From a virus (Duplodnaviria; Caudoviricetes): a stretch of 25,375 bases of DNA. Location: positions 1-25,375 of IMG/VR virus record IMGVR_UViG_3300005805_000444; one strand, written 5' to 3'. The notes beneath the pieces were generated by a model, which made no database searches, had not been told where the DNA came from, and saw nothing but the letters and a program-made list of their open reading frames with translations. Of this stretch, positions 2,415 through 24,498 are shown in pieces. The position numbers were made by a program, and so were the translations under genes. Position 1 is the stretch's first letter. Every line of letters starts with the position of its first letter.

Positions 2415-4403
2415 TTATTCGCTACTACCGCCTCCACCACCTCCACCAGAGCTACTACTCTTGCCGGGATAAGTTTTTTGTAGCTTACCAGCAACATTGC
2501 GGGACGTCACTTTTGGTATTGGAACAAGTTTACCTGTTATACCACGAACAGCCATCTCTAGCATCTCTTGCAGCTTCATTCCACGTCTAACATCTTTATA
2601 CAACTCTTTTTTATGCTCAGGCTTCATATCAGCAGGAAGTGCTTTGTGGAATTCTTTTTCTTTTCCTGAAGATGCAAGCTCACGCATCTTGCTTGCAGAC
2701 ATCCCTTCAATACCTTCAGCATCGGGATCTCTTTCACCAGAAGAATGAACAGTTATTGATTTAAAGTTATAATGACCGTGCTTTTCCTGTTTACCATTAT
2801 ACTTGTCAAGTAGATCTTGCATTTCTTTTTGACGGTCAGAACCAGCAACGACATGAAGATGTGTGATACCCTTTTCATGCATTTTGACAGCTTGATGGAG
2901 GATTGTTGGAGCATCTTTGGTTGCAGCTTCTACATGTGTTCCTGATGGGAACATACGAAGAGCATGTTTTACCTTCTGATCACCGGAGAGTGGGTTCTTC
3001 TTCACATCTTGTGATGCTGACACAACAATCTTATGCTCTGTTGCGTTTTTATCTTTTGCAACATCAAGCACCTTCTTTGCAACAGCAGCATGGCCAGGAG
3101 TTGGTGGATTCATTCTACCAAATGCCATGACACCGTGCCTCTCTTTCGACTTTTCCTTTTTTACTCCATCAGCAGCAACCTTATCCTTCATCTCCGTTGG
3201 CTTATCACCGGGACGAGGACGAGCAGCAAAATTGGCTGCACTAAAGTCTGCACGGTCAACTAATTTTGTAGGACGGCCGTTAATAGTAACAACAGAACCT
3301 TCGCTCTTTGTTGGCTCGAGTTTACCTTCTGCATTCGTCTTGTATGTGTTAAAGTCACCTTTTACAGCAGGCTCGAGGGCATTAATAAGTGTGTTCTTTG
3401 CTTTTTGCAAGTGACCATGCAACTCTAATGCATTTTTCAAATGCTTCTTATGTTGGTCTACTTGGCTCAAAGCTAGATCAAGAGCTTTCTGACGAGTCGC
3501 TTTACCAGCTGGAGTCTTTAGTTTATCAACATCTTTCTGACCACGTTCTTGTACATGAGCTCTATAACCAGCAACGGATGGTGTACTACCATCACGAACA
3601 GTCTTGTTGATATATGTTTTTAGATTCTCTTGGTGCTTTTGAATAGCATCGTATCCCTTGTCTTTGAGAATACGCTGATGAGCCTCTTCTGCATCATCCA
3701 TATGAGTCTGAAACTCATTTGATGTCTTTTGATTGAAAGCAGACTTTGTCGCGTCAATTGTAGGCTTAATCATATGAACATCGGGATGTTCTTGAAACTT
3801 GTTGAAGTCTGGCTTGAAGTCAGCCTTCATCGATTCAAAGTCTTTGCCTTTGTATTGGGTATGAACAACCAGACCAAACTTTGCTTTTTCAATCTTACGG
3901 CCTTCTGGTGAAGTCTTTTTTACACCATACGTAATAGTGTTCGGCTTAAACTGATACTCATCGCCATTTGATTTGACGTCACTCTTACCAGAGTGCATTA
4001 CATCACCCTGATAAACTCCAGCAGCCGGCGCAACCTTAGGTAGATGTTTCAGTGCGTGTTTGAGTTTTTCAACGAGTCCTGGAGCATGTCCGTGGTTTGC
4101 TTCAATGTCTTCTGGAGTGTAATTAAGCTTTGGGTTTTTGTTAAATGCGGATTTACTTGCGACAAAAAATTTACCTGTCGTTGGATGATGTCCAAATACG
4201 ATAGAAGGAGAACCGTCATACTTCGTTGTAATATGGGCACCTTTACCTCCTCCGGTCATTGCTTGATGCACAGAATGCAACGTCTTGGCTGCATGTTCGT
4301 AACCCTCTTTACCAGCATTAATCGGATGATCTTCTGCGTGCTCGAGGTGTTTTAGTTTTTCTTCCGAAGCTGCAGCTTCTGATAAAAAAGATAAGAAGTT
4401 CAT
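2415..4403 (-). CDS. Fusion of a ligase-like KxDG domain (DUF6267-like) and a HIGH-family cytidylyltransferase-like domain
   Basis: The N-domain has HLEHAED, TTKYDGSPSIVFG and YQGDVM. The C-domain has FGRMNPPTPGH (HxGH-type), VVAGSDR and MSASKMR (KMSKS-like). Confidence 0.8.
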   Translation of the reverse strand: MNFLSFLSEAAASEEKLKHLEHAEDHPINAGKEGYEHAAKTLHSVHQAMTGGGKGAHITTKYDGSPSIVFGHHPTTGKFFVASKSAFNKNPKLNYTPEDIEANHGHAPGLVEKLKHALKHLPKVAPAAGVYQGDVMHSGKSDVKSNGDEYQFKPNTITYGVKKTSPEGRKIEKAKFGLVVHTQYKGKDFESMKADFKPDFNKFQEHPDVHMIKPTIDATKSAFNQKTSNEFQTHMDDAEEAHQRILKDKGYDAIQKHQENLKTYINKTVRDGSTPSVAGYRAHVQERGQKDVDKLKTPAGKATRQKALDLALSQVDQHKKHLKNALELHGHLQKAKNTLINALEPAVKGDFNTYKTNAEGKLEPTKSEGSVVTINGRPTKLVDRADFSAANFAARPRPGDKPTEMKDKVAADGVKKEKSKERHGVMAFGRMNPPTPGHAAVAKKVLDVAKDKNATEHKIVVSASQDVKKNPLSGDQKVKHALRMFPSGTHVEAATKDAPTILHQAVKMHEKGITHLHVVAGSDRQKEMQDLLDKYNGKQEKHGHYNFKSITVHSSGERDPDAEGIEGMSASKMRELASSGKEKEFHKALPADMKPEHKKELYKDVRRGMKLQEMLEMAVRGITGKLVPIPKVTSRNVAGKLQKTYPGKSSSSGGGGGGGSSE

Positions 4404-5194
4404 TTTATTGAGTTTACTCGTGCTTTTGTTACTGTACCAAATAACGATGTGAAGTCTTGAGCATTATCCAAAGAATACGTCGATTTATTTGCACCACCTA
4501 ACCGACCTTGCGCACGTATGTTACCAGAAGCGACATTTGTTTTATATTTTGCAACAAATGAAGAACCCGATCTACCTAACCTAAGTTCAATAACAAATTT
4601 CGAGTCTAGTTGAGGAATAGGTAGATTAAGAGGATTTTTTTTCAGATAAAAAAACCCCGCTTTACCAATTTGAATATAGAAGCAGTTTTTATGCTCGTAA
4701 TGATCGTACAAGAAATCAATGTCTGCATCCACCTTCCCATTCAAAGGAACAAGTAGCCTATTCCTGACCATTTCTTCCCATACTGTTTTTGATGCTCGAA
4801 GGGGTAATCCTTCTATCTCGCTAGCAAGAAGAGGCATTTCGTTTTTTTTAGCAAACTCTAATGCTTTTTGCAAATCGTTTCGTTTTGAATTTAATACCTT
4901 ACGAATTTGTGCTTCGACAACTGAATCTATTTGAGATGAGCTTGATAACGAAAACTTTTTTGTTTTCATATCATAATTGAACGATCCACCTCCCATTTGT
5001 GCCCCTGCATCCTGTTTAATTTCAATGTTGAAAGGCCGACCAAATAAGAGTAACTGTAGGTCAGGTTCAGTTGAAGCATAAGCAGCCGTTGATGTACCCT
5101 CTTTAATAGCTATGTTTTCAAGTTTAGCTATTTGCGGCTTTATTGTTTTTAGTACTTTATTCTCATACTCAACACCACCTGCACCTACAGACAT
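4400..5194 (-). CDS. Putative PD-(D/E)XK restriction-endonuclease-fold nuclease
   Basis: GVEYENKV helix, PDLQL and NIEIK occur in the canonical E...PD...ExK order. It has an ATGA overlap with the next gene. Confidence 0.6.
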   Translation of the reverse strand: MSVGAGGVEYENKVLKTIKPQIAKLENIAIKEGTSTAAYASTEPDLQLLLFGRPFNIEIKQDAGAQMGGGSFNYDMKTKKFSLSSSSQIDSVVEAQIRKVLNSKRNDLQKALEFAKKNEMPLLASEIEGLPLRASKTVWEEMVRNRLLVPLNGKVDADIDFLYDHYEHKNCFYIQIGKAGFFYLKKNPLNLPIPQLDSKFVIELRLGRSGSSFVAKYKTNVASGNIRAQGRLGGANKSTYSLDNAQDFTSLFGTVTKARVNSIK

Positions 5195-5236
5195 ATAAAT
5201 CTCCCATACGCAATTAGATTGCTTGTCACATCCTAA

Positions 5237-5617
5237 TTACGTAAGTTCGTGACCCGCTGCTTTAACGTCTAAAGGATGCGCGTAGAAGTGTGTTGCATTC
5301 TTTTTCAGCGTATCTTGTGTTGAAGGACCACGGTAGTTACCCTTCATGCCGCCAGACCGAGCTTGCAATTGATCAACTGTCTCTCTTTTACCTCTATAAC
5401 GAGTACGAACACCAGGATATTTTTTCTTAAATTCCGCGTGATGTTCAATAGGTATTTTACTCATAGGATGTGACTTACCACCTAGTGTGATCTGCGTTCC
5501 CTTTGCTGTAACCATTTCTGCTATAAAATCCTCAATCAAGTCCCTATCATCTTGAGGTTCTTTGGTTGATTTTAGTTGCTCGGCGATAAATTGAGCATAT
5601 CTTTCTTGAATAGACAT
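5237..5617 (-). CDS. Hypothetical protein, probable internal head protein
   Basis: 126 aa, with a late promoter upstream. The N-terminal YAQFIAE matches the end of the T4 CTS (MKTYQEFIAE), and FIAE recurs at DFIAE. Confidence 0.65.
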   Translation of the reverse strand: MSIQERYAQFIAEQLKSTKEPQDDRDLIEDFIAEMVTAKGTQITLGGKSHPMSKIPIEHHAEFKKKYPGVRTRYRGKRETVDQLQARSGGMKGNYRGPSTQDTLKKNATHFYAHPLDVKAAGHELT

Positions 5618-5663
5618 TTTATTTCCTTCCTACATTGAAAACAAAAAAAACTAACACGTTGAC

Positions 5664-5671
5664 TATTTATC
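5664..5671 (-). promoter_or_regulatory. T4-type late promoter GATAAATA
   Basis: Intergenic TAAATA motif about 47 nt upstream of the ATG at 5617. Confidence 0.6.
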
Positions 5672-5717
5672 ATAACCCATTTGCACATTGGTTCGTAAAA
5701 AGCTCTTTAAAGAACAT

Positions 5718-5746
5718 ATTATACCGTATAGAGAACTTTTTAACAA
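5718..5746 (-). promoter_or_regulatory. Sigma70-type promoter TTGTTA-N17-TATAAT
   Basis: -35 at 5741-5746, a 17-nt spacer and a perfect -10 at 5718-5723, all in intergenic DNA. Confidence 0.55.
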
Positions 5747-5749
5747 CAC

Positions 5750-6505
5750 TTAAAAAACACGTTCCCACTCAAAGTTGATTACTTTTTTTGACTTGCGTCC
5801 TTCTTCTGTTTTGTTTCTTTGTAGGACAAGCTCCTTCAGAGCAAAACGTTTTTCTTGATTACCCCATACACTATTAGGATGTATAAGAGACTTGTCGTCG
5901 GGGTATATTGTTTTTGTTACATTATCAGACCATGTGACGTCACGAGCTCCGCGAATGTATTTCACTTCCCACTGCTTGACTTTTTTCCGCCTTGCAAACA
6001 TCCTCAAAGTATCTAAAAAATAACGATCGCCAAAATGTATATTGACAAACTCCTCATCATATCCACCTGTTTTCCAGAAATCGTCTTTATGTACGAGGTA
6101 ATCATTGACAGAGAATCTATCGGGAGATGATTGAATTGTTTCCCAAAAAGAATAATAGAATCCCTGCTTCAACCCTTCCTCGTTTTCATATATCGAAAAC
6201 AACGTTCGATCGGTGTATCTTCTATCAATATCGGACAATAGATTCCAATCCGTTGTTGTCTGCTGCATTAATAAGTTTCTCGTACCATGAGAGTTGAACC
6301 CGATGTCTTCCTTGACTCTAAACAACCGTATATTGTCTTGTGGTTTGTTTTTTTCAAAAAAAGCAGAAGCAGGTCTTTCCTGTGACCCATCATCGCCAAT
6401 ATTCAGTATAACATCACATCCCTGGTCAAGCAGTCTTTGATTGAAACTATACCACCATTTGAGAAAATGTGGTTCGTTATAATATGTAATGTTTATTGAT
6501 ATCAT
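5750..6505 (-). CDS. Glycosyltransferase, GT-A fold (GT2 with a GT7-like C-terminal motif)
   Basis: ISINITYYN, GDDGS, TRNL, a DxD motif (SDID) and GGYDEEF...GD. Confidence 0.85.
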   Translation of the reverse strand: MISINITYYNEPHFLKWWYSFNQRLLDQGCDVILNIGDDGSQERPASAFFEKNKPQDNIRLFRVKEDIGFNSHGTRNLLMQQTTTDWNLLSDIDRRYTDRTLFSIYENEEGLKQGFYYSFWETIQSSPDRFSVNDYLVHKDDFWKTGGYDEEFVNIHFGDRYFLDTLRMFARRKKVKQWEVKYIRGARDVTWSDNVTKTIYPDDKSLIHPNSVWGNQEKRFALKELVLQRNKTEEGRKSKKVINFEWERVF

Positions 6506-7011
6506 TGCGAATAGTGAGTAATGACGTACTTGTCTAACTTATCTATTTTTGCTTGCCACCACTCTCGCGGTTTAACTGTAGCGTGAGCATTTGAACCGTC
6601 GGTAAGGATTTTTGTTGAGGTACGCGTCGATATATTTAAAAAAATTACTTTTCTTGATAAACTGCATATCTCCTCTAACACCTCATGAACACATTCTTCA
6701 GGTACATGCTCCAAGACATCGATGCATAAAACAAGATCTGCAGGGACTTGAGGTTTTTTTGAAAACTTCACTATACCTGGATCATATCGAGTAACACCGT
6801 CTAAATCAAACAACTTCTGGAGCCTGTGCTCCGTCCACGCTTGTGCCTGGCCACAACCATAATCAATACACGTTTTTATATTTGAATTCTTAATTACGTT
6901 TTTTATTTCAAAAACATAAGTTAAAATTGATCCACCTTTAAAAAACTTAGGATTAGCTTCATGGGTTTGGCGATAAACTTCGTAGCTGTTTTGTAGTATT
7001 TGTGAAGTCAT
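6502..7011 (-). CDS. Class I SAM-dependent methyltransferase
   Basis: IDYGCG, YDPG, DLVLCIDVLEHVP and WW motifs. The start was moved to ATG 7011 (MTSQILQ) to limit the overlap with the upstream gene. Confidence 0.85.
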   Translation of the reverse strand: MTSQILQNSYEVYRQTHEANPKFFKGGSILTYVFEIKNVIKNSNIKTCIDYGCGQAQAWTEHRLQKLFDLDGVTRYDPGIVKFSKKPQVPADLVLCIDVLEHVPEECVHEVLEEICSLSRKVIFLNISTRTSTKILTDGSNAHATVKPREWWQAKIDKLDKYVITHYSQ

Positions 7012-7675
7012 AATATTCTTTCCACCATAGATGGGAGTACATTGTTTTTTGATAATTTTTAAACCAAGGCCCACCATCGGTATAATGAATAGCTCGAGGC
7101 TGCATGAGTAGATAGTACTGATCTAAAACATTCCAATCAAGAGGGATACTTCCTATCTCATCATCCTCTAGCCAATCGAACATATGCAATCGCCTACCTG
7201 GCGTCACGTGGTTAATATAGTCCGGTGTCAATCTTCTGTTTGAAGGGTGGCTATTGTTAAAAACAATTAGACTAGCCCAGTTTTTTCTTTGCATGGTGTG
7301 TTGGGCAACACCATCCATCTTCGTTTGTGTGTGAGGCACGTACGGTGGGTGTTTAACAACGCTAATTGCTTTTGTCTTATCGACAGAAAGAATAAGATCT
7401 ATTACATCAGATTGGAATAAGAAATCACAGTCACAGAACACGGAAAAAGTTTTACCATACCCCTCGAGAAAAGGTATCATAAAACGTGTGTATGTAAAAT
7501 CAGTCGACTGATTTTCTTCACGCGGCCGAACATACTCAGGAATGTTTTCACTCCGAAGTAATTCAATCTTTGGTGGACAAAGCTGATCAGTGCGCGAGGC
7601 GATCGAATATTGACAAACCTTTGCAGCTATATCTTCCCGCTGATCATACCCAATATAAACATTAAAGTTAACCAT
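6959..7675 (-). CDS. Glycosyltransferase, GT-A fold (GT8-like)
   Basis: VYIGYD, STDFTYTRF, a DxD motif (DCD), RKNWAS, WN and IHYTDGGPW. Confidence 0.85.
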   Translation of the reverse strand: MVNFNVYIGYDQREDIAAKVCQYSIASRTDQLCPPKIELLRSENIPEYVRPREENQSTDFTYTRFMIPFLEGYGKTFSVFCDCDFLFQSDVIDLILSVDKTKAISVVKHPPYVPHTQTKMDGVAQHTMQRKNWASLIVFNNSHPSNRRLTPDYINHVTPGRRLHMFDWLEDDEIGSIPLDWNVLDQYYLLMQPRAIHYTDGGPWFKNYQKTMYSHLWWKEYYDFTNTTKQLRSLSPNP

Positions 7676-8459
7676 GTTTCAAGTGTTGTAAGAATTCTTT
7701 ACCTGGTATGTAGCTTTTGTATTCATGACGGATATCCGCTGTTTTTACAGCTACATAGTTGAATAAAGCTTCGATATTAGTTAATGTATTGATCCAACCC
7801 TCCACAGGTGATATCATTGCATAAGGAAATGAAGTATGGGTTAATTTACCACCATTGGAAAAGAGAATGGAAGGGACATGCATGAATTTTGCCGGCCACG
7901 CGGCTGTCCCATGATACCCAACGAATCCCTTTGCGACACGAAGCATTCCAATCAAATCGTTGATTGGTGTTCTGTAGTCTACAACCTCTACGGGATATTT
8001 CTTCTTCAAATCTTCTACTATCTGTGGCCAGAACTGCGCGGCCGGGTCTTTCCAGCTCTTACCATATTCTTTCAACGATACAACATTTTGCTCTGTCGAA
8101 TTAACAACAATCAGTTTACTTGTTCGTTTATTTGGCTCTCTGGGAAACCAGTAGTTGTGAAACGAATCCTTACCGACAATATTCCAATCATAGTTTGTGT
8201 GGTTAATATCGAGAGGGTTTTCAAACTTATGCATCACCATAACACGTGTCGAGCCTTTGTGACATAACCTTTCTATGAGCGCTGCACGCTCCCAAAGAGT
8301 TTCAGGATCACGGGGATGTATTTTATGCGTGACGTCATGTTCCCATCTAAATGTCAAGTTGACGGGAATTTGTAACTTGTGTGATAAGTTGTGAGCATAA
8401 CAAATTGGAGAAACTATATCACCGTAACCAATTTTCCCCTTCCACTGTATATCGATCAT
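7668..8459 (-). CDS. Putative GT-B fold glycosyltransferase (GT9-like)
   Basis: N-terminal GKIGYGDIV and C-terminal FVGYHGTAAW...VPSI resemble heptosyltransferase-family motifs. It sits within the glycosylation cluster. Confidence 0.5.
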   Translation of the reverse strand: MIDIQWKGKIGYGDIVSPICYAHNLSHKLQIPVNLTFRWEHDVTHKIHPRDPETLWERAALIERLCHKGSTRVMVMHKFENPLDINHTNYDWNIVGKDSFHNYWFPREPNKRTSKLIVVNSTEQNVVSLKEYGKSWKDPAAQFWPQIVEDLKKKYPVEVVDYRTPINDLIGMLRVAKGFVGYHGTAAWPAKFMHVPSILFSNGGKLTHTSFPYAMISPVEGWINTLTNIEALFNYVAVKTADIRHEYKSYIPGKEFLQHLKHG

Positions 8460-9022
8460 TACCTTTGGATTACCATTGCAAAAAATGATGAGTTAACAAT
8501 TTTACCTCGTATTTGAATATTACCACGGAACCCCGATCTATAAGTGGAAATATTTCTCATTCCAACCGACTTCAATCTACGGCGAAGAGTTAGCTCACTA
8601 TCTTCATTGATAACATCCTCAATCACATAGTATTTTGACCATGAGTTTTTAAAATTAAGAAACGTTTCCCATTGACTATCAACACGGTGATCACCATCAT
8701 CTATAATAATATCATAATCGGTTGGCATCGTACTTTCAACAAACGCCTTGTCACGCGAATTACCTTTTATGATCGTCATATCCTTTGCAGAGTCGACGAT
8801 AGACATATCCCGTGAAAAATCATCGATTCCGTGAATAAGAGTTTCAGGAAAAAGTTCCTTCCAAGCGGCTAGAGAACGACCCTCATAAACACCAATTTCA
8901 AGCATTTTTGTTGGTGTAAAATTTTTAAACACATCAGCATAACACTGATTATAGCCGTGTCGCCATGGGCCTTTGTCAGTCCTATGCTTATTGAAAATAC
9001 GACCCAGTGTTTCCTTATCCAT
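8459..9022 (-). CDS. Class I SAM-dependent methyltransferase, MycE/TylE-like sugar O-methyltransferase type
   Basis: TDK...HGY...Y, LEIGV..G.S...W...FP, IHGID, DIIIDDGDH and YVIED. Confidence 0.8.
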   Translation of the reverse strand: MDKETLGRIFNKHRTDKGPWRHGYNQCYADVFKNFTPTKMLEIGVYEGRSLAAWKELFPETLIHGIDDFSRDMSIVDSAKDMTIIKGNSRDKAFVESTMPTDYDIIIDDGDHRVDSQWETFLNFKNSWSKYYVIEDVINEDSELTLRRRLKSVGMRNISTYRSGFRGNIQIRGKIVNSSFFAMVIQR

Positions 9023-9470
9023 CTTGATTTCCTATCAGTTTATTTTTATGATCTTGGTACAGTCCATACAGTATATATTCAAGAGAGGACGCCTCGATTT
9101 CCCAAGGGAGATCATGGTAGGGAACCTCATCACTGTTTATCGGCTGACCGTGCCACTTATCGTTTGCATTGTTAAGTTCACCTTTTGCAAACTGTTTCAA
9201 ATGTACTAACTCATGTGCAAGGGTGTGAAGCATTTTCTTCAGACTTCGCGATACTTTCAACTCTATTTCAAACTCTCTTGCTTTGTACCAATCATTGTAA
9301 AAAGTTATGCAACAATTACCTAAATCTTCAATCTTTTTTGTTAGAATGATTTCAACAAAAATGTGCTTGTACATTTGTTTTGATACCAGCTGCTTAGTAT
9401 AAAACTTTGTTGCTGCTATCAATTCTTGTTCAAGTTTTGGATTTCTGCAATTTGTGACAATTACTCTCAT
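9015..9470 (-). CDS. Putative Zn metallopeptidase (HExxH)
   Basis: TLAHELVHLKQ followed by PWEIEA. Confidence 0.8.
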   Translation of the reverse strand: MRVIVTNCRNPKLEQELIAATKFYTKQLVSKQMYKHIFVEIILTKKIEDLGNCCITFYNDWYKAREFEIELKVSRSLKKMLHTLAHELVHLKQFAKGELNNANDKWHGQPINSDEVPYHDLPWEIEASSLEYILYGLYQDHKNKLIGNQDG

Positions 9471-15792: not shown

Positions 15793-15836
15793 GATACCTC
15801 GACGGGTATCATACGTCACTTCTTAAATAACGACAA
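15793..15836 (-). promoter_or_regulatory. Candidate sigma70 promoter (TTGTCG-N17-TATGAT) overlapping a hairpin that covers the gp43 SD
   Basis: -35 at 15831-15836 and -10 at 15808-15813. The hairpin GATACC-CGTCGA-GGTATC (15793-15810) contains GAGGT. Confidence 0.5.
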
Positions 15837-16550
15837 CTCTCGCTCTTTGTTTGCTTTCAGATAATTGGAGAGCTTGTCCATGTAACCGCGGTTACGCAAC
15901 TCTTTGAACACAAGGTTCTCAAAAGAAAACTCACCACCAGCTTGAATAGCTGCACCACGCATTGCGCGTAGTTTATCTTTAAGAGTATCAGCAGCACCGA
16001 CACTCTGCTTACCCTTCACCATATTATCTATCTCTTTTGTGTAGAACTCAACTTTTTGTGCTAGGAGAGTGTCCTTAGCAAAATTCATTTTAACAAACTT
16101 TGGCTCCTGCACCCATCTATTCTTCAGCAACGAGAACACGCCTTGTCCAGGACGTGGTTTTGCTCTTTTGTCTTCAGCAAACAATTCAACCGGATATCCA
16201 AGCACCTTAATGTTTGTGTGGTTTGCAGCCCATAACGACTTCTTTGCCATAAAGTAATCCATTACAATTGCTTCATCACAGCTTACTTTATCGTAATCAA
16301 TTATAATGTGGACGTCGAGATCGGATTGTTTCGTGTAGTTGTAATTTGCATTTCCACCAGTGAGAACAATATCAAGGATATTGTTGTTTTCTATGTTTGC
16401 AAACTTTGCCCATACACGAGCAATCTCAAGTAACTTGGTCCGAACCTTCTGGTCGATTTTTTTGTCGTTCCAGAATTTCGGATTCAAGTCACGGTGGTAT
16501 TGGAGTGTTGTCTTTACAACAGCTTCGTTAAATTGGTGGAATGATTGCAT
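15816..16550 (-). CDS. DNA polymerase-beta-superfamily nucleotidyltransferase
   Basis: LTGGNANYNY...SDLDVH (hG[G/S]...DxD) plus a third acidic residue in VELFAE. The N-terminus MQSFHQFNE is CTS-like. Confidence 0.8.
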   Translation of the reverse strand: MQSFHQFNEAVVKTTLQYHRDLNPKFWNDKKIDQKVRTKLLEIARVWAKFANIENNNILDIVLTGGNANYNYTKQSDLDVHIIIDYDKVSCDEAIVMDYFMAKKSLWAANHTNIKVLGYPVELFAEDKRAKPRPGQGVFSLLKNRWVQEPKFVKMNFAKDTLLAQKVEFYTKEIDNMVKGKQSVGAADTLKDKLRAMRGAAIQAGGEFSFENLVFKELRNRGYMDKLSNYLKANKERELSLFKK

Positions 16551-16573
16551 GGTACCAAATAGAAGTTATCCTC

Positions 16574-16581
16574 TATTTAGT
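16574..16581 (-). promoter_or_regulatory. T4-type late promoter ACTAAATA
   Basis: About 24 nt upstream of the ATG at 16550. It is identical to the motif at 2401-2408. Confidence 0.65.
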
Positions 16582-16688
16582 CAATACATCCTATTGAATC
16601 CATTCCGTTCCAAATAACGTCGACGGCCTTCTGCCATCTGCATTATAAAATTCCAAATACTCGTAAAAAAGTTTGTAACGTACTTCAT
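16581..16688 (-). CDS. Small protein (35 aa)
   Basis: Hand-translated MKYVTNFFTSIWNFIMQMAEGRRRYLERNGFNRMY, ATGA-coupled to the upstream gene. Confidence 0.6.
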   Translation of the reverse strand: MKYVTNFFTSIWNFIMQMAEGRRRYLERNGFNRMY

Positions 16689-16852
16689 AGCATCCCCCTA
16701 CGTGCAAGTGTACACATTCTTTGTTCTAGGTCGGCAAGATCTGTTGATTGTGCTAGGTAAGCTTCAATTTCTTGCTGATAAGAAGGAACAAACGACTCCT
16801 TTATCCATTGCATTATTTCTCTTAACGTTGGTGTTTCTACTTGTATATGCAT
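16685..16852 (-). CDS. DUF3563-like small protein
   Basis: EAYLAQSTDLADLEQRM motif, recalled from Burkholderiales proteins. The start is uncertain (ATG 16852 chosen). Confidence 0.7.
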   Translation of the reverse strand: MHIQVETPTLREIMQWIKESFVPSYQQEIEAYLAQSTDLADLEQRMCTLARRGML

Positions 16853-16874
16853 GTTTTTACCCATATGTCTTTTG

Positions 16875-16904
16875 AACAAAATAATAGCCGGCGCACGGCC
16901 GGCT
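16875..16904 (-). terminator. Probable intrinsic terminator after hsp20
   Basis: GC-rich stem AGCCGGC-cgtgc-GCCGGCT followed by ATTATTTTGTT on the minus strand. Confidence 0.6.
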
Positions 16905-16912
16905 CGGCTTAA

Positions 16913-17419
16913 TTACAGTGTACGATCTTGTGGATCTTCTGTAAGTAATTGTTTACTGGACTTCTTAGTGCCAGCGTCTTTTACTTCAACTTTCTTTGGC
17001 TTTCTATGCTCTGGAATGATGCGCTCCAGGAACACTTTAAGCATACCATTCATCATCTCTGCATCTTTGACTTCGACTTGATCTTCTAAGGCAAACGTGC
17101 GTACAAAGTTACGAGCAGCAATACCTTTGAACAAGAAGTTCTCGTTTGCGCTATCGTCTTCCACACGACCTTTAATGATCATCTTGCCATCAGCAAGTTC
17201 AATCTCAATATCTTGCTTGGCAAAACCAGCAACAGCAAGCTCAACAACGTATGTGTTGTCACCTGTTTTCTTGATATTGAATGGAGGATAGTTGGGGATA
17301 TTTTTTGTGATGTCGTCATGCATCTTTGCAAGACGATTAAACTGTTCATCAAACCCGACATAAAATTTGTCAAAGTCTTTGAACATATCACGGCCGAACA
17401 CATCTTTAATATATGTCAT
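16913..17419 (-). CDS. hsp20: Small heat-shock protein Hsp20 (IbpA-like)
   Basis: NYPPFNI, ELAVAGF, KGIAARNF.RTF and A.MMNGML. ATG 17419 has SD GAGGAG. Confidence 0.95.
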   Translation of the reverse strand: MTYIKDVFGRDMFKDFDKFYVGFDEQFNRLAKMHDDITKNIPNYPPFNIKKTGDNTYVVELAVAGFAKQDIEIELADGKMIIKGRVEDDSANENFLFKGIAARNFVRTFALEDQVEVKDAEMMNGMLKVFLERIIPEHRKPKKVEVKDAGTKKSSKQLLTEDPQDRTL

Positions 17420-17432
17420 AATATATTTCTCC

Positions 17433-17657
17433 TCACTTAGTTGCAAAAGCTTTTTTCACATCAAACGTGTATGCTGATGTTCCCATTGTTGTGAAAAATT
17501 TCTCAACTTCTTGGGCTACATTTTTTGCAAACGTAGTTTGAGCAGTAATATAAGCATGAAGAGGTTTTTTAAGTTCTTCGTTGTGTACAAAAGTGTTAAC
17601 GAAGTTTGTTTTTGCACCTTGAACGGTGTCAATAGTTGTATTAACAATCTGAATCAT
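17433..17657 (-). CDS. Hypothetical amphipathic helical protein (possibly phasin-like)
   Basis: 74 aa with a strong SD (AAGGAG) and an amphipathic pattern. The function is only inferred. Confidence 0.6.
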   Translation of the reverse strand: MIQIVNTTIDTVQGAKTNFVNTFVHNEELKKPLHAYITAQTTFAKNVAQEVEKFFTTMGTSAYTFDVKKAFATK

Positions 17658-17663
17658 GTGATT

Positions 17664-17710
17664 CTCCTTATAAAGCGAGTTAATGATTTTGCCAACCCCG
17701 AAGGCATTGG
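17664..17710 (-). promoter_or_regulatory. ROSE-like RNA thermometer
   Basis: SD hairpin CUC(G)CUU-UAU-AAGGAG contains UCGCU with a bulged G (17664-17679). A CCAAU(G)CC-UUCG-GGGUUGG hairpin (17692-17710) precedes it, and the operon contains hsp20. Confidence 0.65.
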
Positions 17711-17769
17711 CCCGGCTTCTGGATTATACAGCCTGCACCGGATTGCTGCTTCCCATCCCTGAGAAAGGT

Positions 17770-17997
17770 TTACTTCTCAGAAATGAATTCGTTTAACAAT
17801 TTAGCCTTGTTAATAATTGCACTCTCCGAAGGATACGCAGGAATTTCTGTTAAGAACTCTTGACCGTCTTTATTTGTACTCGCTGCAAGCTCCCATTTAC
17901 GCATAGCGGTATCACGGCGAGTGTGAAAGTCTTGTTCGAGCAATTCTTTCGACATTTTCAAAAGTTCTAGTCTAATTTCAAATGGTGTTAAAGCCAT
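17770..17997 (-). CDS. Hypothetical protein of T4-like phages
   Basis: TPFEIRLELLKM...YPS...II.KA..LNEFIS, with SD AAGGAG. Confidence 0.75.
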   Translation of the reverse strand: MALTPFEIRLELLKMSKELLEQDFHTRRDTAMRKWELAASTNKDGQEFLTEIPAYPSESAIINKAKLLNEFISEK

Positions 17998-18067
17998 AAT
18001 TTTCTCCTTTGTGTGTGTTAATGTGTGTTTTGGTAGTTTTGGATACCAGCCATTATTATATAGTCGA

Positions 18068-18199
18068 TCACTCCATCAGGACGTAATCTTCTTTGCTGAC
18101 ACCGCACTCTGGACAGTTCACAGAGTCAGGCAGACTCAACCAGTCAGCTTCAGATAGGGTATGACCACAAACAATACAAACGTAAACTTTCTCAGACAT
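18068..18199 (-). CDS. Rubredoxin (short, 43 aa)
   Basis: Hand-translated MSEKVYVCIVCGHTLSEADWLSLPDSVNCPECGVSKEDYVLME, with CxxCG and CPxCG. It is TAATG-coupled to the rubrerythrin. Confidence 0.9.
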   Translation of the reverse strand: MSEKVYVCIVCGHTLSEADWLSLPDSVNCPECGVSKEDYVLME

Positions 18200-18648
18200 T
18201 ATAGTGCCTCCAATACTTTTTTATATGCATCTGCGTGACGTTGCTCAACCTTTTGCAAAGCAGCAAAACGTTTTTCTGCAAGCTCGAGTACCTTCTTGAA
18301 CTCGTCAGCGTGTTGTTTCGATTCAGCAATTTGCTCTTTCGCTTCTTTTGCTGCTTGTAGCTCGCCCTCACGCTCAGCAATAGCATGGAATTGAGGATAC
18401 ATTTCTGTATACTCGTATGTTTCACCGTCAATTGCCTTCTGTAGACATTCTTTTGTTGAAGGCTTGCCAATCAACAACTCAAGGTGACCCCATGCATGCT
18501 TAATCTCTTGATCAGCAGTATGTTCAAAGTGTTTTGCAACATCTTCAAACCCCTCTTCACGAGCAATTTTTGCAAAGTAGCGATATTTAATATGTGCCAT
18601 TGACTCACCAGCCAACGCACTCTCTAGATTTTTTAATGTAGCTGACAT
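18199..18648 (-). CDS. Rubrerythrin (ferritin-like di-iron domain only)
   Basis: NLESALAGESMA..KY..FA..AREEG, EIKH, GETYEYTEMYP and ESKQH, with SD AAGGAG. Confidence 0.92.
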   Translation of the reverse strand: MSATLKNLESALAGESMAHIKYRYFAKIAREEGFEDVAKHFEHTADQEIKHAWGHLELLIGKPSTKECLQKAIDGETYEYTEMYPQFHAIAEREGELQAAKEAKEQIAESKQHADEFKKVLELAEKRFAALQKVEQRHADAYKKVLEAL

Positions 18649-18717
18649 ACTAACTCCTTAATAACATTGCATAATTATATATTGTATCAAAACACAAAAT
18701 CTAATTGATATTTTGAA

Positions 18718-19143
18718 TCACAACAATACGACTTCTACATCAGCCTCTTCAAACATCTGTTGAGTCACATCAAAGCGAAAACGATCGGCATGTGTATCAT
18801 GCCATTCTTTTGATGTTACTACTTGTCTTATCCCCCGCTGAATAATGCCCTTTGCACATTCAGAACAAGGATACAAAGTAGAATATAAAGTGGCGCCGTC
18901 CACGTCAATATAAGCATTGTCCAGAGCATTGCGCTCTGCGTGAGCAACAAATTGAAGCTTTGTAGATCTATCGTTGTATCGTTCTGCACAGTCATGTACA
19001 CCTCTTGGAAAACCATTATAACCCAAACTCAAAACTTGCTTTTTGTTATTAACAATAACAGCACCCACCCTTGTCGACGGGTCTTTTGACCAACCCGCGA
19101 CATGGTGGGCGAGATCCATAAACCGCTGATTCCAATCGGTCAT
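18718..19143 (-). CDS. cd: dCMP deaminase
   Basis: SKDPSTRVGAVIV, GYNGFP, HAERNA and PCSEC zinc motifs. Confidence 0.92.
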   Translation of the reverse strand: MTDWNQRFMDLAHHVAGWSKDPSTRVGAVIVNNKKQVLSLGYNGFPRGVHDCAERYNDRSTKLQFVAHAERNALDNAYIDVDGATLYSTLYPCSECAKGIIQRGIRQVVTSKEWHDTHADRFRFDVTQQMFEEADVEVVLL

Positions 19144-20030
19144 ATCTCAACCACTTTCGATGGATCAAACACTTCTGCTTGATCCTCATACCCAATATAA
19201 CCACGTGGGTTACAAAAGATACGAGTCGAACCAATCATGTAATCAAACTCATGATGAGTGTGACCGTGAGTCCACAATTTAATTTGTGGATGATCGAGAA
19301 TAAACTCGCTTAGCTCAGAGCTGTATGCACCATTCACAATCACGTCCCTCTCATAGCGAGGTTTAATTGATTGCTTGGATGGAGAGTGGTGTCCTACAAT
19401 AACCACTTTCTTATTAACAGGAACAGAAGCTAAAGTCGTACGAATCACCTCAAGCATTTGCTTGTGATCTTCAACCGACGTCTCTGGTGTAAACTGACCT
19501 GTTCTCTGTTTAAATACAGTGATTTCTTTACCAGGATTATCTGGATCTGGCAAGAATGCTTTGTAGTTAATAGGTGTGTTTGTGTCTTCGATCAAACGAT
19601 AGTCATTCATCATCCTGCGAATTTGAGACAGCGTAATTGGATCTTCTTTGTTCATATCTGTCCAAAGAGTACCACCAATGAACAACACATCATCAATCTC
19701 TTCTGTATTCTTATCAAGAATATGAAGATTGCTCAAATACTTCAGTCGCTCGCGTAGCAACGGAATGGTCGTTGGATAGTTACCATGATAGTGCTCGTGA
19801 TTACCTGCAATGTAAATTACATGTGGGAACTGAGCACAGCACTCTTCAAAGAAGCTGTGATACCTATGTGATTTTGTGTGTTCACCTAGCATGTTATGTA
19901 CATCTCGCTCACCAAGATCATTAGCGACGCAGATATCACCAGAAAGAATGAGAACATCTGTATTACCAGCGTTCTCAATCCTTACTGGACCAAACTCGAG
20001 GTGAAGATCACTCACTACCTGTAGTTTCAT
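19140..20030 (-). CDS. Calcineurin-like metallophosphoesterase
   Basis: SDLH, GD, GNHE, GHH and HGHTH, ending in NPRGY. Confidence 0.92.
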   Translation of the reverse strand: MKLQVVSDLHLEFGPVRIENAGNTDVLILSGDICVANDLGERDVHNMLGEHTKSHRYHSFFEECCAQFPHVIYIAGNHEHYHGNYPTTIPLLRERLKYLSNLHILDKNTEEIDDVLFIGGTLWTDMNKEDPITLSQIRRMMNDYRLIEDTNTPINYKAFLPDPDNPGKEITVFKQRTGQFTPETSVEDHKQMLEVIRTTLASVPVNKKVVIVGHHSPSKQSIKPRYERDVIVNGAYSSELSEFILDHPQIKLWTHGHTHHEFDYMIGSTRIFCNPRGYIGYEDQAEVFDPSKVVEI

Positions 20031-20624: not shown

Positions 20625-20632
20625 TCTAAATA
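20625..20632 (+). promoter_or_regulatory. T4-type late promoter TCTAAATA for the plus-strand operon
   Basis: Same TAAATA core as the other four sites, about 41 nt before ATG 20674, whose SD is AGAGGA. Confidence 0.6.
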
Positions 20633-20673
20633 CAGCGTACACTGGGAAGTGTATATTTTAAAAGAGGAAAATA

Positions 20674-21699
20674 ATGACCAAAAAGCTAACTTTTTTGGTG
20701 CTCTTTATTATGTCCTTTGTCAATGCTGTGGCACAGACCACTTATGATTCGACAACTCTTGTTGATACAAACAACAATTCAACAAGCACAAGCACCGTTA
20801 ATACAAATAACACCAGCACTAGTACAAGCACATCAACAAGTACAAGTACTGTTAACAGCAACGCAACGAGCACAAACACCAACAACAACGTTATGAGTGG
20901 TAGTGTAACTTACACTAATAACAATAACAATGTTAATAGTGGTACACAGACGTTAAACAATAACAACGTAAACGTCAATAGTGGCACTATGACATATAAC
21001 AACAATAATGTCAACAGTGGTACACAAACTTTTAATAACAATAACGTTAGTACATCCACAAACACAAACAATTCTGTTAACACAAACACAAATGTTAATC
21101 AGAATATAAACAGCGGTACACAAACGTTTAATAACAACAACACTTCAGCAAGTACTAGTGTTAACCAGAACATAAACAGTGGCACGATGACGAACAACAA
21201 TAACAACGTCAATCAAAACGTGAATACTGGTGATATGACAAATAGAAACGTTAACACATCTGATATTACACAACGAGTAATCCAACCACCTCCTACAGCT
21301 GTTGCTCCTTCAATGATGTCCGGTGGTAACAGCGATCTGTGCTCAACAGGAACAAGTGGTTCTGTTCAAACACAAATCTTTGGTGTTAGCTCTGGCGGTA
21401 CTATTCGTGATTTGAATTGTGAACGCTTAAAGTTATCAAAGACACTCTACGATATGGGTATGAAGGTTGCAGCAGTTGCTACCCTTTGTCAGGATAGACG
21501 TGTTTTTGATGCAATGATGTCTGCAGGTACTCCTTGCCCCTACGAAGGTAAGATCGGTGAGCAAGCAAAAGCATCATGGGAAGCAAATCCCAATCAGATT
21601 CCTAAAGAAGTAAAAGTAGAAAAAGATGATACTTACAAGAAAATTGGTGTTGGTAGCTTGCTTGGTCTTACCGTTTTCAAGCTACTTGGGTTCCGTTAA
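20674..21699 (+). CDS. Exported protein: signal peptide, Asn/Thr-rich repeats and a 4-Cys C-terminal domain
   Basis: Sec-type signal MTKKLTFLVLFIMSFVNAVA. About 7 N-[VI]-N-S-G-T-[QM]-T-like repeats. C-domain PPTAVAP...DLC...NCERLK...LCQD...TPCP and a hydrophobic tail. Confidence 0.85.
   Translation: MTKKLTFLVLFIMSFVNAVAQTTYDSTTLVDTNNNSTSTSTVNTNNTSTSTSTSTSTSTVNSNATSTNTNNNVMSGSVTYTNNNNNVNSGTQTLNNNNVNVNSGTMTYNNNNVNSGTQTFNNNNVSTSTNTNNSVNTNTNVNQNINSGTQTFNNNNTSASTSVNQNINSGTMTNNNNNVNQNVNTGDMTNRNVNTSDITQRVIQPPPTAVAPSMMSGGNSDLCSTGTSGSVQTQIFGVSSGGTIRDLNCERLKLSKTLYDMGMKVAAVATLCQDRRVFDAMMSAGTPCPYEGKIGEQAKASWEANPNQIPKEVKVEKDDTYKKIGVGSLLGLTVFKLLGFR
20760..21260 (+). repeat. Low-complexity AAC/ACA-rich coding repeats
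   Basis: Recurrent aa(c/t)ag(t/c)gg(t/c)ac and aacaa(c/t)aac units encode the N/T/S repeats. Boundaries are approximate. Confidence 0.8.
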
Positions 21700-23206
21700 A
21701 GCTCAAAATTTAGACCCTAATCAGGTTTATAGCACCGGAAATATTGTATTACCCTCGACAAATTCATCGTCGTGGGTAAATGGTGTGTATCAACCATCTC
21801 TTACTTGCTGGAGTTGGGGTGATCCTGGATATTGCGGTCCAAATGCTATTGTAAGACCAGGTGGTAACATCAACTTTTCTTACGGTACAACAGACCTTCA
21901 CCAAATACAAGCTATAGCAAACGTCCTGCCAAACTCCGGTACAGGACTAATTGTGAATGGGTACAACTTTGGATTTACAGCCAAAAACGGTAACGGATGG
22001 GATGATGGTAGGGTCGATAGGTTGAACGCGTACGTTACATTCTATGACTCCTCTAATAACATCGCTTTTAATAAAAACTACAACTTAAACTACCAGTTCA
22101 ATTGGACAACTTTCAATTACAGTGAAACATTTCAAACACCACTTGCAACTGGTAATCTAAGCAATGTGCGATATGGATTCGTTGGAGGTGATAATAACTT
22201 CTGGTCCGGACCATATGGTCCAGAGTTATACGGTGTGAATTTTAGTCTAAAGTATACGGTAGATCCTTGCTCTGTTGATCCTTTGAGTAAACCGACTTGT
22301 CCTGGTTACATGGAAGCATTGGCAAAGCTTACACCACAAACAGTAGAGATTGCACAACAACCTGTAACAGAAATCAAAGAGGTTCAGCAGCCAGCTACTG
22401 TGACATCTACTGTTGCAGCAAGTGCACCCGTAAATAATCAAAGTACAAGCTCTGCACCTCAGACAACAGCAGGAACACAGCAAAAAGCCAATGAAAGTAC
22501 ATCATCCAGCAGTTCACCTTCACTTAGAAGCATACTGAATATCATTGGTAATGAACAGAGTCGTTTGAGCAGATTGGAAACGTCTGTGGCAGGTGCTGCA
22601 GTTGAGCAAGCAAAACAAGAAGCATCAAAGGTAACAGCAGAAGCACAATCCGTTGCTACTTCACAACAAGCACAAACAGTATCATCTGCTCAAACGTTAG
22701 TTGCTAGTATGGTATCACAACAAATACAGACAACATCTCGTACAAACATCTACAGTCTACAATTGAGTAGTCAGCAGACAGATAGAGCCTCTCTTTCACT
22801 GCAACAATCCAATCAATCAGCAAGATCGGATGTTAGTGAAGCAGCAAGACAAGCGGTAACAGAAGAAACGTCGGAAAGTAAACAATTATTAAGCGTCACA
22901 AGCCCAGTTGCTTTGCTATCAAACAGTCAACTTCCAACGTTAATCTCACCTACCGCTCAACAAGAAAGTACAGTAAAAAAGGATGTTGAACTCAACGATG
23001 CAGCAGGTGGCCGAGACATATCAAGCATTGCAAAACAGCCTCCTGGCTTCGATGCTTATTCCACTTTCACTTTGAAAGATATTGCTTTTTACAAACCAGA
23101 GGAAGTGTATAAGAATCAAGTCAATGTTGACAACGCAAGAGCGCTGAGACAACTTTCGTCGGATAGATTACACAACGAAATGGTAGAACAACAATACAAA
23201 AGGTAA
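21626..23206 (+). CDS. Exported protein: aromatic/Gly/Asn-rich beta domain (possibly carbohydrate-binding), Cys motif and S/T/Q-rich stalk
   Basis: Signal-like N-terminus ending VKA-Q, then CWSWGDPGYC and DPCSVDPLSKPTCPGY, followed by a long S/T/Q/A region. Confidence 0.8.
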   Translation: MILTRKLVLVACLVLPFSSYLGSVKAQNLDPNQVYSTGNIVLPSTNSSSWVNGVYQPSLTCWSWGDPGYCGPNAIVRPGGNINFSYGTTDLHQIQAIANVLPNSGTGLIVNGYNFGFTAKNGNGWDDGRVDRLNAYVTFYDSSNNIAFNKNYNLNYQFNWTTFNYSETFQTPLATGNLSNVRYGFVGGDNNFWSGPYGPELYGVNFSLKYTVDPCSVDPLSKPTCPGYMEALAKLTPQTVEIAQQPVTEIKEVQQPATVTSTVAASAPVNNQSTSSAPQTTAGTQQKANESTSSSSSPSLRSILNIIGNEQSRLSRLETSVAGAAVEQAKQEASKVTAEAQSVATSQQAQTVSSAQTLVASMVSQQIQTTSRTNIYSLQLSSQQTDRASLSLQQSNQSARSDVSEAARQAVTEETSESKQLLSVTSPVALLSNSQLPTLISPTAQQESTVKKDVELNDAAGGRDISSIAKQPPGFDAYSTFTLKDIAFYKPEEVYKNQVNVDNARALRQLSSDRLHNEMVEQQYKR

Positions 23207-23210
23207 AAAA

Positions 23211-23864
23211 ATGGCAGAAGAAATCAAAGACCTGAACAAAGAAGTAGATAAACTTGAAGCAGCAGCAAAGAAGTATGCTAGCAAGGACACAGTAATTAGT
23301 GTTGGTGGTTATGAATTCACACCAGCTAAACTAATGATTGCGTTTACAATCATATCGACGACGCTTGGTGGATTGTATGGTGCGTTTGAAGCATATAAAG
23401 ACTATATGGGAATGAAGAAAAAGATTGCTGAGTATGTTTCGCCCGACTTATCAGAGTTTGATAAAAGACTGGCTGTGATTGAAGAGAACAGTCAAAAGAC
23501 ATCAGATTACACACGTGATATCAAGAACGACTTAAAGAGTGATATACGTAGAAACGAGTCTGTAACGGAACAGATTGAACGTGGTGTAAAGCAAGCACAG
23601 CGCGAGACAGAACAAGAGATGCGTCAGGCTCGTAAAGATATCCGCGAAGACTTGGAAAAGGCAAGAGGAGAAGTCAATGCTATTCGTAAAGAGGTTGCTG
23701 ATGCTCGCCGTGAGATCACAAGAGAGGTTGATTCAGCAAAGAAAGACATTGCTCGTGATGTTGATACGTTAAAACGTGAAGTCAAACGTGATGTTGACGT
23801 GTTGAAGAAAGAAGTAGATACAAAGATTCAAAAAGCTATCGATAACCCACTAGCAAACAAATGA
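23211..23864 (+). CDS. Membrane-anchored coiled-coil protein
   Basis: One TM segment (LMIAFTIISTTLGGLYGAF), then a long coiled coil with about 11-residue periodicity, ending IDNPLANK. Confidence 0.8.
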   Translation: MAEEIKDLNKEVDKLEAAAKKYASKDTVISVGGYEFTPAKLMIAFTIISTTLGGLYGAFEAYKDYMGMKKKIAEYVSPDLSEFDKRLAVIEENSQKTSDYTRDIKNDLKSDIRRNESVTEQIERGVKQAQRETEQEMRQARKDIREDLEKARGEVNAIRKEVADARREITREVDSAKKDIARDVDTLKREVKRDVDVLKKEVDTKIQKAIDNPLANK

Positions 23865-24007
23865 TTTACATTGCATTGTTGATGGCTTCAACGGTGCAGT
23901 ATGAATGTGTTAGATGGACATGGACAGGAGATGTCTACAACCGCAAGGTTGTATGTTTACAATGGCGTGAAAAAAATGCTTCAACGAACAAAGAAAAGAG
24001 AAAATGA
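23861..24007 (+). CDS. Small protein with a hydrophobic N-terminus and a Cys-Trp beta-hairpin (48 aa)
   Basis: Hand-translated MIYIALLMASTVQYECVRWTWTGDVYNRKVVCLQWREKNASTNKEKRK, with ATGA overlaps at both ends. Confidence 0.8.
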   Translation: MIYIALLMASTVQYECVRWTWTGDVYNRKVVCLQWREKNASTNKEKRK

Positions 24008-24498
24008 TCGATCCTATCTCTATAGGAGCCGCTTTTGCTGCTGCGCAAGGAGCTGTAGACGGAATCAAGGCAGCTATAAACATGGGAAAGGATATCAACG
24101 GTATCGTTGGTGATCTTGGTAAGTTCTTTAGATATAGTAACGAAGTATACACTGCTGCTGCAAAAAGCAGTGTAGAAAATTACAAAAAATCAGATGGTGA
24201 GTTAGGCGAAGTTGCGCTTCAACTTGCGATGTCCGCAAAGAAGTTACGTGATGATGAGAGAATGCTCAAAGAGTTATTAATATACTCTGGTAACGGCGAT
24301 GTGTGGGAACACATGCAGAAAGAGCATCTACGACTGATAAAAGAAAAGCGTGAGTTTGAAAGGAAGCAGCGCGAGATAATAGCAAAAAGAAACGAACAGA
24401 TTGCCGAGGCAGTAATGGGAGGCGCTATTGCACTTCTTTGCACAGGTGTCCTAGCAATGTTTTGTGTTGCCGGGTTCAACTACCTAACACGAGGTTAA
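24004..24498 (+). CDS. Helical membrane protein (MIDPISI N-terminal helix, coiled coil, C-terminal TM)
   Basis: 164 aa. The C-terminal hydrophobic stretch is AVMGGAIALLCTGVLAMFCVAGF. Confidence 0.8.
   Translation: MIDPISIGAAFAAAQGAVDGIKAAINMGKDINGIVGDLGKFFRYSNEVYTAAAKSSVENYKKSDGELGEVALQLAMSAKKLRDDERMLKELLIYSGNGDVWEHMQKEHLRLIKEKREFERKQREIIAKRNEQIAEAVMGGAIALLCTGVLAMFCVAGFNYLTRG

Follow-up and report, generated by a model that had tools for sequence, protein, structure and literature searches.

The described systems closest to the locus examined here are spanins, chaperone-usher pili and curli. Among spanins, lambda Rz/Rz1 is a two-component system and T1 gp11 is a u-spanin. Passages in three papers describe a pelagiphage curli (type VIII secretion) cluster comprising CsgG, CsgF and CsgA/B together with FecR, for which sibling capture, superinfection defence and lysis control have been proposed as roles (PMC7029224, PMC9599517, PMC9004378). 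Here we analyse five adjoining genes, A to E, in a genome fragment of a tailed, T4-like aquatic phage (IMG/VR record IMGVR_UViG_3300005805_000444; "the window" denotes this whole record of 25,375 bases). The first three genes, A-B-C, are a real, widespread and undescribed envelope module that belongs to none of the three classes. Literature searches listed no description of A-B-C; phage annotation tables in supplements may mention the genes.

Like lambda Rz/Rz1, A-B-C includes an inner-membrane protein of type II topology whose coiled coil is predicted to lie in the periplasm (C), is likely expressed late and is frequently found near an endolysin gene, but it has three core genes, no lipoprotein partner and no spanin profile match. 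Like the phage curli cluster, it is a multi-gene exported module that moves between podo- and myophages of streamlined aquatic hosts. In contrast to that cluster, the window operon is without kinase, FecR and cyclase; in their place it encodes a coiled coil at the inner membrane and a protein that is lectin-like. None of its five genes matched CsgG, CsgF or curlin in PHROGs, Pfam or NCBIfam, and no curlin-repeat fibre subunit was recognized, A having no Pfam match and an optional repeat region. Chaperone-usher pili (CfaB, type 1 Fim, archaic Csu) resemble only a six-gene variant of the module, with genes X1-X2-X3 inserted, which has a pilin-like beta-sandwich with an N-terminal extension and an adhesin-like B. 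In contrast to these pili, the module has no usher-sized gene, the window has no pilin gene, and A, C and X3 are without counterpart.

Results

A three-gene module conserved across tailed phages

The conserved domain of A matches 4326 proteins at 90% clustering (1212 representatives at 50% identity). We estimate that 2700 to 6600 IMG/VR stretches carry A, with ∼6600 stored stretches matching one A motif. Thirteen phage records contain the gene; they include six from pelagiphages, two from Roseobacter phages and that of RSP15, a phage in which A stands alone. The 21 GTDB matches all lie on metagenome-bin contigs, and the eight that we examined look like phage contigs.

Gene order was counted in loci L001-L088 and L115-L202; L089-L114, almost all repeat contigs, were excluded. 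A was present at 175 of these loci; removing redundancy left 106, and in 69 of them A was followed by 4.5 kb of sequence. Because loci were selected by likeness to A, they are a non-random sample; C was counted as an open reading frame (ORF) of >60 aa ending in NPL. The first-pass annotation of the window had treated A to E as one five-part system. Synteny across phages bears out the co-occurrence of the first three genes (B in 62 and C in 68 of the 69 loci) and does not support a system of five: D and E are optional (12 and 20 loci) and an E homolog occurs without A, which makes A-B-C the unit. Six of the seven loci without B are annotated records with another exported gene in the B slot. The A-B-C order is kept across myo-, podo- and other tailed phages, many of them unrelated to one another and from water, and in many T4-like phages the operon is inverted beside the DNA polymerase gene, as it is in the window.

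Two Roseobacter phages, CRP-810 and CRP-207, and ct7L0027 have in the B slot an exported protein that is unrelated and apparently helical (L087:5422-6635, L207:2468-3873, L206:1639-2831); two records label the C gene of this group lysozyme, which is probably an error. Among extra neighbours of A-B-C, a DUF4337 membrane protein is seen most often (23/88 loci, for example L016:8855-9403). About ten loci have, after C, a recurrent pair made up of a small Cys-rich lipoprotein and a protein with two transmembrane segments (L075:6449-6685, L011:9661-10116). In several large phages a solute-binding protein and a sodium:dicarboxylate symporter adjoin A-B-C (L015:9414-12105), and related loci have an Asp/Glu racemase-family gene.

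Export or membrane signals had been attributed to all five proteins. This holds with two qualifications. D has only a short hydrophobic start, with no 19-residue hydrophobic stretch >1.6, and E has a C-terminal transmembrane segment and no signal peptide. Signal peptides were called by a crude rule, not by SignalP; the rule passed 145/150 A and 118/134 B sequences versus 37/264 neighbour clusters.

Gene B carries a lectin-like domain on a stalk

As a single sequence, the window B has no Pfam match. A profile of its N-terminal domain (A7, built from 40 B domains), when searched against PDB sequences, matched FBXO6, FBXO2 and FBXO44 with E values of 2.8e-6, 3.6e-5 and 1.1e-3. The similarity to this FBA-type domain covers ∼75 residues and includes the FW-x-G-x-Y-G-P loop, whose Trp is conserved in 23/26 long-B rows. 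We take this FBA loop to be the part that contacts sugar. The likeness of B to the FBA domains of Fbs1/FBXO2 and FBXO6 is one of sequence, aromatic loop included. Fbs1 binds the Man3GlcNAc2 core of N-glycans (PMC5457524). In contrast, Fbs1/FBXO2 is a eukaryotic cytosolic ligase subunit, whereas B is predicted to be an exported, stalked phage protein. We predict from these profile matches that B is a sugar-binding protein, and an earlier guess that it is an adhesin gains backing from the FBA match.

Long B proteins display two unrelated N-domain types (36 and 18 of 54 sequences) on a common Cys motif, stalk and conserved tail, indicating that the N-domain is exchangeable, as in adhesins. The second type gave only a weak NIDO hint (2/18, E 0.03). 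The conserved C-terminal segment, a candidate anchor, has one invariant Tyr and four other positions conserved at ≥90% (alignment A3, 96 sequences).

Gene A and its bacterial homologs

A belongs to phrog_20531, a PHROG of unknown function. Its low-complexity region is very variable in length and almost gone in many homologs, and the protein spans 125-526 aa. The proposal that the N/T repeat of A is a core fibre subunit is not supported, the repeat being missing from many A proteins. In the AlphaFold2 model the Cys-closed hairpin (strands 80-88 and 93-101 of the modelled fragment) has a predicted local distance difference test (pLDDT) score of 77-79, compared with 90+ in the helices; by column profile it is Gly/Ser-rich with a moderately hydrophobic face. 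The model had no Foldseek match in the PDB at E≤0.001 (best Z 3.4 by another structural aligner), and the A sequence profile matched no PDB sequence. A viral structure library gave ten matches at E≤0.001, all uncharacterised or unnamed. The absence of a matched solved fold is no proof of a new fold.

A hydrophobic C-terminal tail occurs in A mainly where it overlaps the signal peptide of B, and non-overlapping homologs are mostly without it. In the window, the same 74 bases (21626-21699) encode this tail and the B signal peptide in two frames.

Homologs of A also occur in bacteria. The A profile matches 82/398 genomes of one bacterial family (that of a Polynucleobacter bin) and 4/301 genomes of an alphaproteobacterial-centred sample, one of which is the phage-bearing bin itself; a further homolog lies on a Variovorax replicon. 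Of 18 bacterial regions fetched, A was evident in 17. An exported-type gene lies directly upstream of A in 16/17 of these loci and is clearly seen in 15; L256 has no such gene, and in L249 it is hidden by ORF choice or absent. The main upstream proteins are 112-263 aa long, 67-84% G/A/S/T/N and nearly uncharged. Neighbouring genes are housekeeping, transport or regulatory, with no phage lysis genes seen. Neither A nor the upstream genes gave a functional Pfam, NCBIfam or PHROGs family, and identical proteins are filed as hypothetical under Caballeronia, Pandoraea, Paraburkholderia and Trinickia. Two alphaproteobacterial A homologs stand alone and have Asn-rich repeats like those of the window A. 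A is thus repeatedly found beside or fused to fibre-like low-complexity sequence in bacteria, consistent with a function outside phages.

In the chromosomal operons L239-L255, from genomes of one bacterial family, and L203:4956-6615, an A homolog comes after one or two proteins that are secreted, uncharged and rich in Gly/Ser/Ala/Thr/Asn. These operons are a candidate undescribed fibre or amyloid system.

A six-gene variant with a pilin-like insert

In 11/69 loci three exported genes, X1-X2-X3, lie between a short B and C. The insert is seen in phages of different types (L117:8322-9615, L160:8260-9569, L167, L173, L177) and encodes a pilin-like protein (X1), a small beta protein (X2) and a small Cys-hairpin-coil protein (X3). 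At 90% clustering, 918 relatives of X1 were counted. The protein is modelled (pLDDT 95) as a beta-sandwich from which an N-terminal extension of 12 residues hangs free. Foldseek put CfaB, the CFA/I pilin, at the head of its list (E 6e-4); FimF, PapG, FimG and CsuA/B were within the top 14 rows. Of the named Atlas clusters, SCPU is nearest (0.95), the SCPU family being found on 15% of the cluster members.

X2 and X3 gave no family, and X2 had no relevant Pfam or PDB sequence match; a resemblance of X2 to a chaperone domain is our assumption, for which no match was obtained. X3 was not found in 400 genomes of one class, in a search run without positive control. ORF inspection revealed no usher gene in the variant operons or their flanks, no usher profile having been run over whole contigs. 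The Cys-hairpin-Cys-helix layouts of A and X3 look alike by eye; hhalign finds no similarity, and we rejected them as relatives. B domains have no similarity to X1 or X2. Short B is homologous to a domain of the window B (hhalign probability 96.7), and B measures 278-322 aa with the cassette versus 460-909 aa without it.

Gene C, the accessory genes and the layout of the window

Replication genes of T4-like type lie on the minus strand of the window, namely those for regA, the clamp loader, DNA polymerase, UvsX and a helicase. A to E lie between regA and the polymerase region on the plus strand, so the operon is inverted (Table 1). A and B overlap by 74 nucleotides, B and C are separated by 4, C/D and D/E overlap by 4 each, and E and regA converge head-on with an overlap of 4. 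The five ORFs, their spacing and their orientation were as the first-pass annotation had described them, and its Cys counts and hydrophobic stretches matched on recount. It had also called A to E the only credible plus-strand genes, in agreement with our finding that the three remaining plus-strand ORFs of ≥100 aa are all antisense within long minus-strand genes.

Table 1. Features of the operon, with positions in the window.
Feature	Position	Strand	Description or basis
T4-type late-promoter-like octamer, TCTAAATA	20625..20632	+	precedes the start codon of A by 42 nucleotides
Gene A (core), 341 aa	20674..21699	+	signal peptide (predicted), a region that is N/T/S-rich and variable, and a conserved domain with four Cys
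A residues 22-200, low-complexity	20737..21273	+	77% G/A/S/T/N
A Cys223-Cys249, predicted beta-hairpin	21340..21420	+	small residues and hydrophobic tip, then four helices; AlphaFold2, column profile
Gene B (core), 526 aa	21626..23206	+	signal peptide (predicted), a domain that is lectin-like, a Cys motif, a stalk of S/T/Q and a conserved segment at the C terminus
B residues 27-212, FBA-type (Fbs1/FBXO2/FBXO6) sugar-binding-like domain	21704..22261	+	profile versus PDB sequences
B loop Phe192-Pro199	22199-22222	+	aligned with FBXO6 loop
B conserved C-terminal segment, candidate anchor	22988..23203	+	common to long and short B
Gene C (core), 217 aa	23211..23864	+	one transmembrane segment near residues 41-59, long predicted coiled coil
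C invariant C-terminal NPL	23844-23852	+	alignment
Gene D (accessory), 48 aa, Cys-Trp peptide	23861..24007	+	
Gene E (accessory), 164 aa, helical	24004..24498	+	C-terminal transmembrane segment; phrog_32327, PHROG of unknown function

The octamer TCTAAATA alone is at chance level in the window (2 found versus 2.34 expected). The motif T[AC]TAAATA occurs within 130 nucleotides upstream of A in 24/145 homologs versus 48/4350 random windows; we take the T4 late consensus to be TATAAATA.

C ranges from 77 to 217 aa among the loci. Its NPL terminus is invariant in an alignment whose rows were picked for ending in NPL. In L049, L050, L052 and L156 C is duplicated in tandem, with copies of unequal length. 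E accompanies D in 30/31 loci that have D, and the E homolog in MW202701, a record without an A match, sits between a holin and an M15 peptidase. As optional passengers, D and E are more likely linked to lysis timing.

Elsewhere in the window, genes for Hsp20, rubrerythrin, dCMP deaminase, a metallophosphoesterase and a weak nucleotidyltransferase match lie between the operon and the DNA polymerase gene (15816-20030, minus strand). Methyltransferase-like and unknown genes follow the helicase (5750-9470, minus strand); together with a cytidyltransferase fusion at 2415-4403 they are possibly a DNA or surface modification cluster.

Display on the infected cell weighed against lysis and other roles

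We favour, as an even call, the reading that A-B-C is a late, envelope-anchored display system for a lectin/adhesin or fibre on the infected cell. Evidence for an adhesive structure at the surface comes from the exchangeable lectin-like domain, the pilin-like insert and the bacterial context, and evidence for lysis from the gene neighbourhood. A surface structure had already been suggested from the window alone; the FBA match, the pilin variant and the fibre-like bacterial neighbours favour this part of the suggestion, whereas its five-part composition and the A repeat as core fibre did not stand.

A number of observations weigh against display. The operon contains neither an usher nor a CsgG-type pore, the A hairpin is only moderately hydrophobic, and the AlphaFold2 monomer model of A is uninformative on pores. 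The FBA loop is missing from short B (14/14), and the FBA-like domain could bind periplasmic peptidoglycan, not a surface glycan. VIA-align did not single out pilins for X1: its best score was an amylase (Z 8.1), followed by SdrD-type adhesins and integrins, with the cannula protein CanA at Z 6.3. These middling scores beside the Foldseek rank of CfaB make the pilin-like call for X1, which derives from models, a moderate one. The 13 cassette-bearing rows fall on one side of a single branch of the 67-row A tree (support 78/74), so the stalk-versus-pilin contrast represents one event. Cells infected by a phage with curli genes, a different module, showed no clumping in one report (PMC9004378). 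The topology of C is i-spanin-like, an N-terminal transmembrane segment and a periplasmic coiled coil as judged from hydropathy and sequence. Finally, lysis genes are frequent neighbours. Flanks of 2.5 kb on either side were available for 54 non-redundant loci, from lineages that are not independent, and in at least 21 of these an endolysin lies within 3 kb; as for the other lysis neighbours, this count, from seed clusters and record annotations, is a floor. Several phages hold A-B-C inside the lysis cassette, and several read Rz-Rz1-GH19-A-B-C.

The endolysins concerned are of GH19, lysozyme, M15 and amidase types. Rz- and Rz1-like genes both lie within 3 kb in at least 9/54 loci and a holin in at least 5/54; 33/54 have no recognised endolysin within 3 kb. 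These data are compatible with a lysis accessory in which C, in the inner membrane, links A and B at the outer membrane, B binds peptidoglycan, and the complex, after the wall has been cut, helps to break or fuse the outer membrane, or times lysis. We consider this doubtful, though a serious possibility. Besides the endolysin neighbourhood and the Rz-Rz1-GH19-A-B-C runs, it is favoured by the topology of C and the enrichment of the late-promoter motif upstream of A, and the hydrophobic-tipped hairpin of A could serve as a fusion loop. However, late envelope genes lie in clusters with lysis genes on account of their regulation, and the 21/54 figure lacks a background rate for comparison. Canonical Rz/Rz1 already lie beside 9/54 loci, exchangeable lectin-like domains and a pilin-like insert are unnecessary for lysis, and the bacterial A loci are without lysis genes.

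Lipobox patterns were found in 0/145 A and 1/118 B sequences with signal-like starts, arguing further against such a role; without lipoboxes, A and B are not spanins. Neither is an outer-membrane lipoprotein with a lipobox Cys, as an o-spanin would be. Nor does the trio contain a T1 gp11-like u-spanin with lipoprotein signal and conserved C-terminal transmembrane segment, given that there is no lipobox and the A tail is missing in many homologs. The five proteins are neither recognisable virion proteins nor known spanins, as the first-pass reading required. Searches of PHROGs, Pfam and NCBIfam gave no functional family and no Rz/Rz1 profile match for any of A to E, whereas true Rz/Rz1-like neighbours do match the LysC, phrog_739 and phrog_812 profiles. 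That A-B-C simply replaces spanins was rejected because Rz/Rz1 sit beside the trio. The lysis link is real for some lineages and does not make A-B-C a spanin substitute.

The complex might instead act in the periplasm as a guard or brace of the envelope, with B binding wall or lipopolysaccharide precursors and C as tether, blocking superinfecting DNA or delaying lysis. Every core part is exported or membrane-bound, there is no recognisable outer-membrane exporter, and in some phages C by itself is too short to reach across the periplasm. Genes for exclusion are as a rule early and occur singly, in contrast to this operon with its late-type motif, and the place where long stalks and a polymer of pilin-like type make more sense is outside the cell; we regard a guard role as unlikely.

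Lectin-like and fibre-like low-complexity domains of this kind are common on virions, and in some podophages the genes lie near structural genes, which would fit head or tail fibres acquired at assembly or lysis. The export-type N-termini counted above for A and B, the conserved transmembrane segment of C, the sharing of the module by phages of different morphology and the cellular homologs make virion decoration very improbable. The sole PHROG match of C, to tape measure proteins (E 3e-4), is a coiled-coil-level resemblance and does not help this explanation.

Discussion

For display on the infected cell, we infer a course that includes a pore or ring role for A, contacts among A, B and C, and a surface location for B. 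A-B-C would likely be expressed late. A and B would cross the inner membrane by Sec and form disulfides, and the Cys-closed hairpins of several A subunits may come together as an anchor or small channel in the outer membrane. B would be anchored in the envelope by its conserved tail and likely displayed outward, the length of the stalk setting the reach of the lectin, while C, through its coiled coil, would fasten the assembly to the inner membrane. In one lineage this reach would come from a pilin-like polymer, not from the stalk. The likely benefit is that the infected cell sticks to new hosts or particles before lysis, or that surface sugars used by rival phages are covered.

A bolder proposal, which we put forward tentatively and think rather unlikely, is that A, a small protein exported by Sec, is the founder of an undescribed export-and-anchor class, in which disulfide-closed hairpins form an outer-membrane ring that displays fused or adjacent cargo and by which lytic phages of the aquatic bacteria that are most abundant make infected cells sticky traps for further hosts. 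The cargo, on equally tentative grounds, would be Gly/Ser fibre subunits in bacteria, repeats rich in Asn and, in phages, a stalked lectin or a pilus without usher.

The module is common, and phages in culture that infect Pelagibacter and Roseobacter-group hosts have it, with every part unannotated. Cultured phage-host pairs therefore exist in which either display or a lysis function can be tested. A lysis accessory would represent a new way of opening the outer membrane. If A-B-C instead displays a lectin or fibre, it would provide a second, testable route to the sibling capture proposed for dilute water, and would point to an unknown export system that is also present in bacterial chromosomes.

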